The notes: generated by a model not told the origin, from the letters alone. A stretch of DNA of 64,000 nucleotides from Candidatus Anstonella stagnisolia (GCA_902384585.1 CABMCJ010000004.1:770086-834085), one strand, 5' to 3'; counted from the first letter of the stretch, positions 10,107 through 32,617 are shown. A program made the numbers and translations.

Positions 10107-10257
10107 GCTCCAATAGTCTAGCCCGGTCAAGGACGCTGGCCTTTCAACCCTTTTGCTCGCTCCAGGCGGGCACGCTCGCAAAAGCGTTGACGGAAAATTA
10201 AGATGTCAACAAGGCAGAAGAAAGCCGGTAACCCGGGTTCGAATCCCGGTTGGAGCA
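10107..10257 (+). tRNA. tRNA-Glu (anticodon UUC) with a 76-nt intron at the canonical 37/38 position (about 10147..10222)
   Basis: Exons fold by hand. The acceptor is GCTCCAA/TTGGAGC and the D arm is GTCT-AGCCCGGTCAA-GGAC. The anticodon stem is CTGGC/GCCGG with loop CTTTCAA. The T arm is CCGGG-TTCGAAT-CCCGG, the discriminator is A, and no CCA is encoded. The intron contains two hairpins (CTTTTGC...GCAAAAG and GTTGAC...GTCAAC). Confidence 0.85.
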
Positions 10258-23405: not shown

Positions 23406-23912
23406 TCAGTCAAAGCTTATTTTGGAAATTTTCAAAAATGCAATGCCCGCGCCTTCCGGAAAGGCAAGCACGAGCTCCTTGCGCATGAAATGCGCGACTG
23501 CTATTTCACGCAAAAGGGATGCGCGGGAGAATTTCCAGCCTTTATCGCACACGCGCACTATTGTTTGCGCGCGCTCCTCTTCGCGCCCAATGCCGCGCGA
23601 GTACACGCGGAGATAAGGGGAAGGAATTGAGTGTTCGCGGCATATGCGGCCCTGCGCGCGCAAATGCTCAAAGCAGCGGTAGCGAAGAGGGAGGTATTTG
23701 TCCTTTTTTGAGAGAAGCTTTTCAAGGGCTGCGTGGGGGAGGGGCTTTTTGCCGCTGGAAATTTTTATGCCGAGCCGTTTGCACAAATAGAGGGCTTCGC
23801 AGGGTGAGAGGCGGAGGAGTGTTGGGGAAACAAGCGAGCCAAAGCCGCGGGTGCGCAGGAATTCTATTTCTTTTGGGCTGCTTTCGGTTATTTTGTTTTT
23901 TTGGAGTTCCAT
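23406..23912 (-). CDS. endA: tRNA-intron (splicing) endonuclease homolog, single-unit size
   Basis: Start moved to ATG 23912 (MELQKN...), 1 nt after the upstream stop. LRLSPCEALYL, YLRVYSRG and VAHFMRKELVLAF match the EndA C-terminal domain. The catalytic-His position appears substituted (EERAQTIVRV against KEHSVYLVKV in M. jannaschii). Confidence 0.75.
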   Translation of the reverse strand: MELQKNKITESSPKEIEFLRTRGFGSLVSPTLLRLSPCEALYLCKRLGIKISSGKKPLPHAALEKLLSKKDKYLPLRYRCFEHLRAQGRICREHSIPSPYLRVYSRGIGREEERAQTIVRVCDKGWKFSRASLLREIAVAHFMRKELVLAFPEGAGIAFLKISKISFD

Positions 23913-24463: not shown

Positions 24464-25636
24464 ATGATAATCGGGATAGTGGGTGCGCCTAACAAGGGCA
24501 AGAGCACATTCTTTTCGGCTGCCACAATGGTGGATGCGCAGATTGCGGACTACCCTTTCACCACGATTGACCCGAACAAGGGAGTTGCGTATGTGAGAAG
24601 CCCGTGCCCGCACGTTGCACTGGGGCTGAAAAAATGCGACGCAAGGAACTCAAAATGCGAAGGGGGGGTGCGGCTCATTCCCATAAACATGGTGGACGTT
24701 GCGGGATTGGTGCCTGATGCGCACCTTGGAAAAGGCATGGGAAACCAGTTTTTGGGGGACCTTGCGCAGGCGGACGTTCTTATACAAGTGGTGGATGCAA
24801 GCGGGCGCACTGATGTGCAGGGGAACCGCGTGGAGGGCGCAGATGTATGCGAGGAAGTGAGGATGCTGCAGCGCGAAATTGAATATTGGATAAAGGCAGT
24901 GTTGGACAAGAACTGGGCAAAAATAAAGGGCAGGGGGATTGCGGATGTTGCGCTTGCGCTTTCCGGAATGAACGTGGGAGCGGCGGCATGCGAGGCTGCT
25001 GCGCGCGAGTGCGGATTGCAAATTGAGAAAATAGAATGGGATGATGGGGAAAAAATGGAGTTCTGCAAAAAAATAAGGGAGGCAAGCAAGCCCATTGTTG
25101 TTGCCGCGAACAAGTGTGATGCGCAGGGGGCTGCTGCAAATGTGGAAAAATTAAGAAATGATTTCCCGGAAATGCTTGTTGTGCCAACGTGCGCCGTTGG
25201 GGAGCTTGCGCTTCGGAAAGCGGCGCTGGGCGGGAAAATAAAATACGTGCCAGGGGCTGCAAACTTCGAGATTTGCGCTGAAATTGAAGAGAAGCAGGCA
25301 AAGGCGCTTGAGGCGATTGGGAAGATAATGCGTGCAAACGGGGAATGCGGGATGGGGGTGCAGGAGCTTATAGGGAAGGCTGTTTTTGAATATTTGAAGC
25401 TGGCGGACGTTTATCCGGTTGAGGACGAGCACAAGTTTTGCGACAACGCGGGCAGGGTGCTGCCGGATGCCTTCCTCATGAAAAAAGGCGCGACTGTTTT
25501 TGACTTGGCGGGAAAAGTGCACACAGATTTGCAGCAGCATTTCATAGGGGCAGTTAATGCAAAAACTAAGATGAGGGTGGGGCGGGACACGCTGCTTTTG
25601 CGCGGGGACGTAATACGCATAATTGCGGGGAAGTAA
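24464..25636 (+). CDS. Obg-family GTPase (YchF/Ygr210-related) with a C-terminal TGS domain
   Basis: Start moved to ATG 24464. The G1 motif is GIVGAPNKGKST, followed by YPFTTIDPN, DVAGLV and NKCD. The C-terminal segment is GDVIRIIAGK. Confidence 0.85.
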   Translation: MIIGIVGAPNKGKSTFFSAATMVDAQIADYPFTTIDPNKGVAYVRSPCPHVALGLKKCDARNSKCEGGVRLIPINMVDVAGLVPDAHLGKGMGNQFLGDLAQADVLIQVVDASGRTDVQGNRVEGADVCEEVRMLQREIEYWIKAVLDKNWAKIKGRGIADVALALSGMNVGAAACEAAARECGLQIEKIEWDDGEKMEFCKKIREASKPIVVAANKCDAQGAAANVEKLRNDFPEMLVVPTCAVGELALRKAALGGKIKYVPGAANFEICAEIEEKQAKALEAIGKIMRANGECGMGVQELIGKAVFEYLKLADVYPVEDEHKFCDNAGRVLPDAFLMKKGATVFDLAGKVHTDLQQHFIGAVNAKTKMRVGRDTLLLRGDVIRIIAGK

Positions 25637-25715
25637 GTTGCATCAGGCGGCGAGCCTTGCAAAGAGGCAAAAGATAAAAAGCGGGACTGAGAATATAGGG
25701 AAACGCGGTGATATC

Positions 25716-27206
25716 ATGGAGAATAATGAAAATGCCAGGAATGCACATGAAGCTGGCGCGAAAAAGAATTATGCGGTTTATGCAGTTGTTGTGATACTTG
25801 CCATTGTTGCGCTTGCTGCAGTTGTTCTTGGGATGCAAAAGCCTGCGGAAACAAAGCAGGCGACCCCGTCTGAATTTTTCTTTGCGTCCATGGACAAGAT
25901 GATGAACGCCACCGAATATTCGCTTGCGTTTAGCGAGAACGTGAGCGGGGTGGAAAACAAATACGCGATCGTGCGGGCCAAGAACGGGATGTTCGCATCG
26001 GCTGAAAACCCCGTAGATATGCGGGAGTTTTACGTGCTGGATGGCGGGAAATATGCGTGCGAGAAATTCGGGAATTACAGCGTGTGCGCGGACATGAGGG
26101 AAAACAGCAGCGCGCTTAATTTTTTCAATGCAAAGCTTGCCCCGAAATTCTTTGGGAAGCAGCAGGTGGAGCAGGACAAGGAATTTGTTGCGGCACTGGA
26201 AAAATTCGGTGCTGCAACTTTTGACGGGAACTTCGTGGAAAAGACAGTGGGAGGCATCAAGTGCAGGCAGGTCACTTATGCGCTGGATTATGGGAAACTC
26301 AGCCTGGACCAGCTAAATCAGCTTGGGATTTCGGCAAGCAGCCCGGTTGTCACGCAATTTAGCGACTACAGGATAAGCCTGTGCATAGATGAGGCAAGCG
26401 GCATTGCGGTGCAAACTGTGCTTTCGTACAAATTCAACAATGAGCAGAGAGTTTATACAAGGGAATATACCGGGCTGGAAGTAGGCGGCGTCGGGGAACT
26501 TAAAGCCCCGCTCAAGCTTGAGAATGTTGCCAAGTTCGAGGACGTTTTTGCGCAGGCAAATGCCGAGCTTGCGGTATATTCTGCATGCAGCGGGCTCGTT
26601 GAGAGCGAGGCTTCAAAATGCTACATAGGGATTGCACTGGACAGGTGGGACAGCAGTTTCTGCTCGAGAATAAGCGCGCCAAACGAGGCGGACAGGTGTT
26701 ACCTCATGGTCGCAGTGCAGGCGTCGCAGCCGCAAACGTGCGAAAGTGCGGGAAAATTGAGGGATGACTGCCTTTTTGAGATTGGGGCGGGAAGCAAAAA
26801 CCCAAGTGTATGCGGGATGATAGGCAATGCGAGCATGGTTGCGCAATGCAATGGGATTGCGGGGAACGGGACTGGGAAAAGCCCTGCGAACCAGACCCAG
26901 GCGCCGGCAAAGAAGGTTGAATGCGCCCAAGACAGCGACTGCGCGCCGACGGGGTGCAGCAACATTGTGTGCGCACCCCTGAACTCCACGGTTGCCACGA
27001 CGTGCGAATACAAATCGGTATACGCATGTTTTGAAAAAGCATTCTGCGGATGCAGGCAGGGCGCGTGCAGCTGGTATAAGGGGGAAGAGTACAATGCATG
27101 CGTAAGCGACTTTGAAAGCTCTGCCATGGAAAGCATAATCAAGGAAAAAATAGCTGAGCTCAACCAGACTGCCGGAAACGTTTCTGCAGGCAACTCAACA
27201 AAATAA
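25716..27206 (+). CDS. Membrane-anchored or secreted Cys-rich protein, function unknown
   Basis: Start moved to ATG 25716. The N-terminal TM anchor is YAVYAVVVILAIVALAAVVLG. The C-terminal third has repeated C-x(9-11)-C units and a dense Cys cluster (ECAQDSDCAPTGCSNIVCAP...CGCRQGACSWY). Confidence 0.55.
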   Translation: MENNENARNAHEAGAKKNYAVYAVVVILAIVALAAVVLGMQKPAETKQATPSEFFFASMDKMMNATEYSLAFSENVSGVENKYAIVRAKNGMFASAENPVDMREFYVLDGGKYACEKFGNYSVCADMRENSSALNFFNAKLAPKFFGKQQVEQDKEFVAALEKFGAATFDGNFVEKTVGGIKCRQVTYALDYGKLSLDQLNQLGISASSPVVTQFSDYRISLCIDEASGIAVQTVLSYKFNNEQRVYTREYTGLEVGGVGELKAPLKLENVAKFEDVFAQANAELAVYSACSGLVESEASKCYIGIALDRWDSSFCSRISAPNEADRCYLMVAVQASQPQTCESAGKLRDDCLFEIGAGSKNPSVCGMIGNASMVAQCNGIAGNGTGKSPANQTQAPAKKVECAQDSDCAPTGCSNIVCAPLNSTVATTCEYKSVYACFEKAFCGCRQGACSWYKGEEYNACVSDFESSAMESIIKEKIAELNQTAGNVSAGNSTK

Positions 27207-27216
27207 AAAGAAAAAG

Positions 27217-27387
27217 CGGGCCCAGAGGGATTTTCAACCGCGGCTTCACGCACCCTAGTTTTCGGAAAACGAAAAGGGGGTGAAACCACAGGGGGGACTT
27301 CCGGAATGCCTGATGCCCCCCTAGGTTTTCGAACCCTCGACATGTTGATTAAGAGTCAACCGCTCTACCAAGCTGAGCTATAGGCCC
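27217..27387 (-). tRNA. tRNA-Lys (anticodon CUU) interrupted by a ~97-nt intron inside the T-loop (about 27231..27327; position 59/60, junction ambiguous within GAAAA)
   Basis: The minus strand from 27387 reads GGGCCTA-TA-GCTC-AGCTTGGTA-GAGC-G-GTTGA-CTCTTAA-TCAAC-ATGTC-GAGGG-TTCGAA. Then ~97 nt intervene. T-CCCTC-TGGGCCC-G follows at 27230..27217 and completes the T-stem and the 7-bp acceptor stem (one G:U pair). Confidence 0.8.
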
Positions 27388-27434
27388 AAGGATATCTTTA
27401 TATCCAGGCAAAAATATAAACCATATGTTTGGTG

Positions 27435-32542: not shown

Positions 32543-32617
32543 TAGCGGGAGGTGGATTTGAACCACCGGTCTCTGGGTTATGAGCCCAGCGGGCACTCCA
32601 AACTACCCTATCCCGCT
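32543..32617 (-). tRNA. Initiator tRNA-Met (anticodon CAU)
   Basis: The minus strand reads AGCGGGA-TA-GGGT-AGTTTGGAGT-GCCC-G-CTGGG-CTCATAA-CCCAG-AGACC-GGTGG-TTCAAAT-CCACC-TCCCGCT-A. It has the A1:U72 pair and three G:C pairs closing the anticodon stem, both initiator hallmarks. Confidence 0.9.

Follow-up and report, generated by a model that had tools for sequence, protein, structure and literature searches.

A gene for tRNA-Lys(CUU) lies on the minus strand, from 27387 to 27217, of the window, i.e., the whole stretch of 64,000 nt of Candidatus Anstonella stagnisolia DNA that was analyzed. The gene is 171 nt long and is composed of a 60-nt exon 1, a 97-nt intron in the T-loop and a 14-nt exon 2, so that the mature tRNA is 74 nt long; CCA is absent from the gene. 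An earlier note on this DNA had described a tRNA-Lys(CUU) split in the T-loop by about 97 nt, and the complete parse bears this out, with an insert of exactly 97 nt. The features of the locus are the following.

27414 to 27420, minus strand: TATA-like box TTTATAT, 27-33 nt upstream of G1 (direct reading)
27328 to 27387, minus strand: exon 1, 60 nt, with the acceptor 5' strand, D arm, anticodon arm, variable region, 5' strand of the T stem and T-loop positions 54-59 (parsed by hand)
27387 (G1) onward, minus strand: acceptor stem, GGGCCUA paired with UGGGCCC, followed by UA before the D arm
Within exon 1, minus strand: D arm GCUC-AGCUUGGUA-GAGC, followed by G
Within exon 1, minus strand: anticodon arm GUUGA-CUCUUAA-UCAAC
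27351 to 27353, minus strand: anticodon CUU (Lys), within the 7-nt loop CUCUUAA on a 5-bp stem, with U33 and a purine at 37
Within exon 1, minus strand: variable region AUGUC
27334 to 27338, minus strand: 5' strand of the T stem, GAGGG, followed by UUCGAA, which ends at 27328
27231 to 27327, minus strand: intron at 59/60, 97 nt, with bounds taken from bulge-helix-bulge (BHB) geometry, intron-less orthologs and the T arm of the Lys(UUU) paralog
27217 to 27230, minus strand: exon 2, 14 nt, with U60, CCCUC (27225-27229), UGGGCCC and the discriminator G73 (27217)
27200 to 27215, minus strand: T-runs TTTTT C TTTTT A TTTT, beginning 2 nt past the discriminator (direct reading)

Upon folding, the spliced 74-mer forms a perfect cloverleaf (-28.3 kcal/mol) with the T-loop UUCGAAU, and ARAGORN called the product spliced in silico tRNA-Lys(ctt), with a 97-nt intron. 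The predicted splice junction reads ...GGUUCGAA/UCCCUC..., i.e., GGUUCGAA joined to UCCCUCUGGGCCCG(CCA). The same genome encodes a Lys(UUU) paralog (C4:311092-311208) that has a 42-nt intron at 37/38 and the same acceptor and T stems as Lys(CUU); its T-loop is uninterrupted and reads UUCAAAU, vs the UUCGAAU predicted for Lys(CUU). Exon 2 is identical to the 3' end of this paralog (C4:311092-311106) and to the corresponding part of the Lys(CUU) ortholog in the congener G001.

Judged from its sequence, the TATA-like box would act as the promoter of tRNA-Lys(CUU); the ortholog in G001 (L028) likewise has a TTTATATTTTTGCC motif, 33 nt upstream. The T-runs, which are found downstream of the G001 ortholog too, are likely to represent an archaeal terminator. 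An ORF of 214 aa on the minus strand (26699-27343) overlaps the tRNA gene and was judged spurious; it is antisense to an ORF of 527 aa (25623-27206).

The assembly amounts to 1.33 Mb in 6 contigs, has 50% GC and is 89% complete. A separate, intact Lys(CUU) gene elsewhere had been named in advance as a possible refutation of the split gene, and no second gene was found in this 89%-complete assembly by ARAGORN, Rfam, the splice scan described below, BLAST or an anticodon-arm pattern. The last retrieved 23 stem-loops with CUU in the genome, only one of which, this locus, is tRNA-like.

Predicted splice junctions and splicing enzymes

The archaeal BHB motif, as described in PMC3239211, consists of two 3-nt bulges that flank a 4-bp helix (3-4-3). 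Folding of the exon-intron junctions, also named beforehand as a test, gave a textbook hBHBh' motif made of the following elements.

27334 to 27338 with 27225 to 27229, minus strand: outer helix h, i.e., the T stem GAGGG/CCCUC, 5 bp
27330 to 27333 with 27233 to 27236, minus strand: central helix, U54-G57, UUCG/UGAA, 4 bp
27327 to 27329, minus strand: 5' bulge, A58, A59 and the first intron base, A; predicted cut after 27328
27230 to 27232, minus strand: 3' bulge, A, A and U60; predicted cut between 27231 and 27230
27324 to 27326 with 27237 to 27239, minus strand: inner helix h', ACC/GGU, 3 bp

Applying the 3-4-3 geometry to the junctions places the predicted cut sites at 59/60, and the motif restores exactly a 7-nt T-loop. 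Because A-runs flank both junctions, the exact phosphodiester bonds that are cut are not readable from the sequence of the product alone. The position at 59/60 instead of the canonical 37/38, as first proposed, agrees both with the BHB geometry and with the intron-less orthologs discussed below.

The 171-mer has an MFE of -74.3 kcal/mol (z = -4.5 vs shuffles), and the intron was confirmed as GC-rich and structured, with the AGGGGGG...CCCCCCT and TTTTCG...CGAAAA stems pointed out earlier both appearing in the MFE fold. Constrained folding of the same 171-mer gave -72.0 kcal/mol for the strict hBHBh' conformer, a gap of 2.3 kcal/mol from the MFE. The BHB conformer is not the MFE fold, and in the protein-free ensemble the probability of the central helix is about 0.2 and that of the inner helix about 0.8. 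Genome-wide, strict BHBs occur at a frequency of about 1.8e-4 of the (site, length) combinations, which corresponds to 121,067 candidates. At this rate, and given the exact restoration of the T-loop, the motif in Lys(CUU) is not what chance alone would produce.

The splicing endonuclease EndA (393 aa, C4:881747-882925) contains the N-terminal and catalytic Pfam domains and aligns over residues 1-393 with residues 1-387 of the ARMAN-2 ε2 structure 4fz2 (E=2.7e-128). Thus, by its sequence, EndA is a three-unit ε2 (αp-α-β) splicing endonuclease, and an ε2 EndA was found in all 61 relatives searched. The genome also encodes RtcB (C4:84248-85549, 587 bits). The earlier note had assumed that such an intron needs an endonuclease with relaxed BHB recognition. 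This holds in part: the genome does encode the broad-specificity ε2 enzyme, but no relaxed recognition is needed for the Lys(CUU) intron, since its motif is a strict 3-4-3 hBHBh'.

From these elements we infer transcription, cleavage, ligation and intron circularization at tRNA-Lys(CUU), by a route that would start with a single 171-nt precursor made from the gene's own TATA-type promoter and ended at the oligo-T terminator. The precursor would fold so that the T stem, the U54-G57/UGAA helix, the two 3-nt bulges and ACC/GGU form the strict hBHBh', within both bulges of which the three-unit ε2 endonuclease would cut. RtcB would then ligate the exons and probably circularize the intron as well, and addition of CCA would complete the 74-nt cloverleaf tRNA with its UUCGAAU T-loop. 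A circular intron, if formed, would join ...GGUUGAAAA to AACCUAGGGG....

A near-repeat, GGUUCGAAAA/GGUUGAAAA, flanks the intron and was considered as a target-site duplication. This reading was rejected, because in the Pro copies of the intron (see below) UGAA on the 3' side is complementary to UUCA and does not repeat it; thus, what is conserved at the junctions is the BHB and not a duplicated target. Consistently, no direct repeats of 10 nt or more were found at any T-loop copy among the 60 distinct copies of the hairpin core that were checked.

Detection by standard tRNA finders

The Lys(CUU) gene was not found by ARAGORN, either with default settings or when introns of 0-200 nt were allowed in the anticodon loop; within the window, this program reported a tRNA-Met (32543-32617) alone. 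At the Rfam gathering score, the tRNA model recovered the same tRNA at 32543-32617 and an intron-bearing tRNA at 10107-10257, and missed Lys(CUU). In E-value mode, the model scored the gene at 28.1 bits, vs a cut-off of 29 bits, and with a false T arm. The earlier expectation that standard finders would overlook this gene was therefore correct for both ARAGORN and the Rfam tRNA model. The tRNA at 10107-10257 is a tRNA-Glu(UUC) and holds the one canonical 37/38 intron of the window. Canonical 37/38 BHB introns share with the Lys(CUU) intron the 3-4-3 substrate and the endonuclease plus RtcB pathway, but their outer helix is the anticodon stem, whereas in Lys(CUU) it is the T stem, so that finders modeling only 37/38 introns fail.

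The effect extends beyond one gene. To ARAGORN and Rfam, the Lys(CUU) isoacceptor looks absent, as do at least seven more tRNAs encoded in the genome: those for Gly, Leu and Ser, two for Pro, one with a CAU anticodon and one further. With at least eight tRNAs invisible to standard finders, inferences on completeness or codon usage that are based on the tRNAs of Micrarchaeia MAGs will be systematically too low unless BHB-aware tools are used.

Orthologs and the T-loop intron family

The predicted mature tRNA was compared by BLAST with 60 relatives, and the loci were then inspected. The records of the relatives read Candidatus Micrarchaeota, Micrarchaeia or Anstonellaceae, which puts the genome in a DPANN lineage; DPANN genomes were among those that the earlier note named for noncanonical introns. 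In the congener G001, the exons of Lys(CUU) are identical at 74 of 74 positions (60 of 60 in exon 1), while the homologous 93-nt intron, inserted at the same site, is identical at only 72 of 105 aligned columns (about 69%); identical exons with a diverged intron are the pattern expected when the exons are under selection and the intron is freer to change.

Uninterrupted genes with a CUU anticodon occur in eight genomes of other families of the order (G056, G048, G050, G038, G042, G037, G060 and G052) and in G014. These orthologs are colinear with the predicted 74-mer over positions 1-74, at 82-91% identity, and in G037 the sequence across the junction is exactly GAGGGTTCGAATCCCTCTGGGCCCG. Other genera of the same family have unrelated introns at 59/60 (G031, 14 nt; G026, 22 nt; G005, about 32 nt; G033, about 63 nt), while the Lys(CUU) orthologs of G008, G002, G024, G016, G032 and G027 carry an intron at 37/38 instead. 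Furthermore, the genes for Leu(UAG) and Lys(UUU) have no T-loop intron in this genome (G000) and bear one in G001. The intron-less and intron-bearing alleles differ exactly by the 59/60 insert, and this fixes the position.

Taken with the junction motif, these comparisons make it very probable that this member of the Micrarchaeia (DPANN) has at this locus a real, functional intron-containing gene for tRNA-Lys(CUU), spliced as proposed.

The intron is one of at least eight homologous T-loop introns in this genome, 91-99 nt in length except for one longer copy, a family that had escaped the earlier note. A whole-genome scan, in which all strict BHB candidates were spliced in silico and the products were run through ARAGORN, recovered five further tRNAs with homologous T-loop introns of 91-97 nt, and nhmmer added other copies.

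Found by the BHB/splice scan: Pro(GGG), Pro(CGG), Gly(GCC), Leu(CAA) and Ser(GCU), the last called Cys by ARAGORN
Found by nhmmer: a CAU tRNA with two introns; a longer copy in a tRNA (G000, C4:760267-760418); a half-copy

The half-copy sits right after a stop codon, outside any tRNA. Strict BHBs are present in six T-loop introns, five of which restore the 59/60 junction and one, in Leu(CAA), a 58/59 junction. An HMM built from five other T-loop introns of the genome, with the Lys intron left out, had a single match in the window, at 27336-27227 (nhmmer, E=7e-19). The covariance model R1, built from seven copies of this genome, gave 111 bits for the Lys intron and detected 16 copies in G001 and weaker ones in 20 of 61 relatives that span several genera and families. 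Strict 59/60 BHBs also recur in Gly, Pro, Leu, Lys and other tRNAs of many Micrarchaeota MAGs.

The Lys intron itself contains two hairpins.

27290 to 27322, minus strand: P2, AGGGGGG...CCCCCCU, the conserved "module" core
27240 to 27289, minus strand: P3, GUGGUUUCACCCCCUUUUCG...CGAAAACUAGGGUGCGUGAAGCCGC

P2 is kept in all seven genome copies, with one covarying closing pair, and 93.9% of it is paired in 35 distinct sequences. P3 takes the family form GAGGUYUCA-CCCCCUCUUCG...CGAAGAG...UGAAAYCUC, with sequences that differ between members. When 12 members were folded separately, 11 adopted a Y shape made of the BHB stem, P2 and the long P3; the exception is the Gly(GCC) copy of G001, which folds differently. 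An alignment of 40 introns, which was fitted to the structure of the model and is hence biased toward pairing, has 92.2% of its cells paired vs 74.4% when shuffled. The same alignment has compensatory changes in 19 of its 24 pairs, and the paired fraction drops to 45-68% when the partners are slid by 1-3 columns. Across 35 distinct members, all five pairs of the T stem covary; so do the first pair of the inner helix h' (CG in 15, AU in 8) and the tip helix of P3. A K-turn in the P2 loop was also considered and rejected, as the stem-adjoining non-bulged strand is AG and not GA.

Such an architecture, held across host tRNAs and genera with compensatory changes, may be taken to mean that the gene is spliced as proposed and that the excised 97-nt intron, probably circular, is in addition a stable RNA with a function of its own, e.g., in binding a protein or in regulating tRNA maturation. 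The length is in keeping with this possibility, as 97 nt is far above what the BHB needs, and G031 and G026 make do with introns of 14-22 nt at this position. There is also a precedent in the pre-tRNA-Trp intron of Euryarchaeota, which contains a box C/D guide RNA (cited in PMC4090602). However, the Lys intron matches no Rfam family, even with E-values up to 10, and no box C/D motifs (RUGAUGA, CUGA) were seen in it by eye. Moreover, the set of intron-bearing tRNAs differs between the congeners, and the orthologs of other genera have unrelated introns or none, which is easier to reconcile with a selfish or neutral element than with an RNA that the cell requires, while the conserved structure could equally serve mobility or the presentation of the BHB. 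An added function of the intron RNA is for these reasons unlikely.

The family also bears on whether the two exons belong to one transcript. Archaea that have broad-specificity endonucleases include some with split tRNAs, the junctions of which resemble BHBs (summarized in PMC3239211), and the two parts of Lys(CUU) could accordingly be independent pieces, either the halves of a tRNA joined in trans or 5' and 3' fragments that are neighbors by chance. Yet the halves follow each other in the right order on one strand, with 97 nt between them; the DNA between them is a member of the conserved intron family and has no internal TATA-like box or T-run terminator; the sole TATA-like box precedes exon 1 and the sole T-runs follow exon 2; and the arrangement in G001 is identical. 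Two separate pieces are thus extremely improbable, and a single interrupted gene is the preferred reading.

Copies outside T-loops and comparison with known systems

The hairpin core of the intron is not confined to T-loops. A search with its pattern of a species-representative collection (185,579 species) returned 59 stretches, all of them from Candidatus Micrarchaeota, Micrarchaeia or Anstonellaceae. Among named MAGs, 15 of 67 occurrences passed the T-loop context test; the other contexts are anticodon-loop introns, sites directly past the 3' ends of tRNAs, tandem arrays and intergenic DNA. Of 60 distinct copies of the core, 9 are flanked by perfect direct repeats of 10 nt or longer, vs 1.6% in mismatched controls; for three of them the setting is a tandem array or a duplicated segment. 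The six clean copies are all outside T-loops and have repeats of 11-20 nt that abut the 5' end (five copies) or lie close to it (one copy).

At one location, three modules in tandem (about 160 nt) are present in G001, and the site is empty in G000. A free-standing copy of G001 (L032) was also compared with C2:132379-132764 of G000; the two intergenic sequences are non-homologous and of similar length, so that this pair gave no clean empty site.

The T-loop introns of Micrarchaeia may well be a mobile family. A more specific proposal is that a mobile hairpin element, specific to the Micrarchaeia and with AGGGGG-loop-CCCCCUGAGGUYUCACCCCC as its core, gave rise to the Lys intron through domestication of one copy. 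Insertion of the element at the DNA level would duplicate 11-20 nt of target, and the sites used would include T-loops, anticodon loops, the 3' flanks of tRNAs and intergenic regions. A copy that landed in a tRNA loop, or evolved there, such that a BHB formed would then be tolerated because the ε2 endonuclease removes it. The chances of this proposal being right are about even.

A rival reading is that a mobile hairpin element has inactivated tRNA-Lys(CUU) by inserting into its T-loop, leaving a pseudogene that is not spliced, with AAG codons read by tRNA-Lys(UUU). The core does behave like an inserting element, given its occurrence outside tRNA genes with target duplications and the empty site in one congener, and Lys(UUU) is present and could in principle read AAG. 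Against this, the exons of the two congeners are identical at 74 of 74 positions, with only about 69% identity left between their introns, and both genomes have kept the promoter and the terminator. In addition, a strict BHB lies exactly where it restores the 7-nt T-loop, with a 3' junction piece that is complementary to positions 54-57 instead of being a duplicated target. The same logic would also kill at least seven other tRNAs, including Pro(GGG), Pro(CGG), Gly(GCC), Leu(CAA), Ser(GCU) and the CAU tRNA. Loss of the gene by insertion is therefore very improbable, and the spliced, functional tRNA-Lys(CUU) remains the favored reading.

The closest known system is that of ARMAN-2 (Candidatus Micrarchaeum acidiphilum), the tRNAs of which are generally intron-rich and include 59/60 introns in tRNA-Cys(GCA) (13 nt, hBH) and in tRNA-Pro(GGG) (53/54 and 59/60), as reported by Fujishima et al. 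2011 (PMC3239211). The ε2 enzyme of ARMAN-2 cleaves both a 37/38 and a 59/60 intron in vitro (PMC3239211). With introns at 59/60 and their cleavage by ε2 already published for ARMAN-2 (PMC3239211), the Lys(CUU) gene on its own is what one would expect in this lineage. The two systems share the phylum, the 59/60 position in the T-loop and the ε2 type of EndA (see the alignment with 4fz2 above). They differ in the host, which is Lys(CUU) here, in the length of the intron (97 vs 13 nt), in the motif (strict hBHBh' vs relaxed hBH) and in the presence here of at least eight homologous, structured copies per genome. None of the 59 matches of the hairpin-core pattern falls in a record titled Micrarchaeum acidiphilum.

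A second comparison is with the Thermoproteales, in which tRNAs that differ in identity share near-identical introns, located at canonical and noncanonical sites alike (Fujishima 2010, Mol Biol Evol 27:2233, as described in PMC4090602 and PMC3239211), and this has been taken to indicate spread or transposition at the DNA level, in the summary given by PMC4090602. Both systems have homologous introns across tRNA identities in a host with a broad-specificity endonuclease. However, the Thermoproteales belong to the Thermoproteota and have an (αβ)2 enzyme, whereas the Micrarchaeia are DPANN with an ε2 enzyme. Unlike the Thermoproteales introns, the Micrarchaeia core is also found outside tRNAs, at intergenic sites flanked by direct repeats of 11-20 nt, in tandem arrays and at tRNA 3' ends; no account of an intron core outside tRNAs was found in the literature on Thermoproteales introns, as far as the summaries cited above describe them. 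The family is also distinct from a 37/38 hairpin family of the same genome, which has the core CCCTTTTTGCGC...GCGCAAAAAGCG and, in this genome, favors the anticodon loop over the T-loop; its sequence is unlike the AGGGGG...CCCCCUGAGGUYUCACCCCC of the T-loop family.

Neither a long (91-99 nt), structurally conserved family of T-loop introns in Micrarchaeia nor the occurrence of its hairpin core on its own, between duplications, was found in the literature searched. What may be new here is a long, structurally conserved intron family that extends over many tRNAs, is gained or lost between congeners, is restricted to the Micrarchaeota within the species-representative collection of 185,579 species and has free-standing copies of its core with target duplications. 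The pattern of this family offers an unusually direct comparative handle on how noncanonical tRNA introns of archaea arise and move. If the mobile-element proposal is true, this lineage would be a live system for following how introns are gained, enlarged and lost in the tRNA genes of archaea.

Open reading frames near the tRNA-Lys gene

A second EndA-like ORF is present in this genome, at a distance of about 3.5 kb from the tRNA-Lys(CUU) gene.

Window 23406-23912, minus strand: small EndA-like ORF, second in the genome, 168 aa counted from the first ATG

The predicted product matches the Pfam domain tRNA_int_endo_N with 29 bits and the catalytic domain with 35 bits, and in the PDB it matches best, with E values of about 1e-10 to 1e-9, the EndA proteins of M. 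kandleri and M. jannaschii. At the position aligned to the catalytic His it possesses an Arg. The ORF was found in 43 of 61 relatives and, in many genomes, tRNA-Lys(CUU) lies about 4 kb away from it. Its within-genus identity is 65%, versus 93% for the ε2 enzyme, the three-unit EndA of this genome; the small ORF is fast-evolving. The account of the ARMAN-2 endonuclease (PMC3239211) makes no mention of such a small paralog.

Another ORF overlaps the tRNA-Lys gene itself.

Window 26699-27343, minus strand: 214-aa ORF

This frame is antisense to a 527-aa ORF (25623-27206) and is most likely spurious, although it could mislead gene callers.

Introns of other tRNA genes

Introns were also seen in two further tRNA genes, one of them outside the window on contig C4 of the same genome.

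Window 10107-10257, plus strand: tRNA-Glu(UUC) with a 76-nt intron at 37/38
C4:874030-874260, minus strand: CAU-anticodon tRNA with two introns

The tRNA-Glu(UUC) intron belongs to a second conserved family with the pattern CCCTTTT.GC.CGCTCCAG..GGG.ACGC.CGCAAAAGCGTTGACGGAAA; within the genome, the introns of Glu(CUC), Gln(UUG) and Ala(UGC) are members as well. In the CAU tRNA, the junction of the T-loop intron is relaxed, with a 3' bulge of 5 nt, CUAAU. Two sequences in the 37/38 intron of this tRNA, GUGAUGAGC and CGAUGAAG, resemble box C and C'.

The hairpin core outside the T-loop

The hairpin core of the T-loop intron family also occurs away from tRNAs, as in a free-standing copy outside the window.

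C4:382363-382468, minus strand: hairpin core, 5' half only

This half-copy starts immediately 3' of a TAA stop codon, with no surrounding tRNA. In the congener, three tandem hairpin modules (about 160 nt) lie just 3' of a stop codon (L036, G001:C38:360-755); the counterpart in the present genome (C2:~87500) is an empty site without the modules, and comparison of the two revealed no clear target duplication.

The core was also found at the ends of tRNA genes. At the 5' end, in L046 and L047 of Micrarchaeota MAGs, the first 14-15 nt of the tRNA are duplicated and flank the inserted core on both sides (AATGGGCCTGTGGC, TGGGCTCGTGGCGCA), so that an intact tRNA 5' end is regenerated downstream of it. 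At the 3' end, in many Anstonellaceae and Micrarchaeota MAGs (L057, L058, L072, L089, L090 and other loci), it lies 2-3 nt past the tRNA, as ...GCGCGGGCCCATT followed by CCCTAGGGGG..., often with more tandem copies coming next, a pattern suggesting that the hairpin core also has a preference for tRNA 3' trailers.
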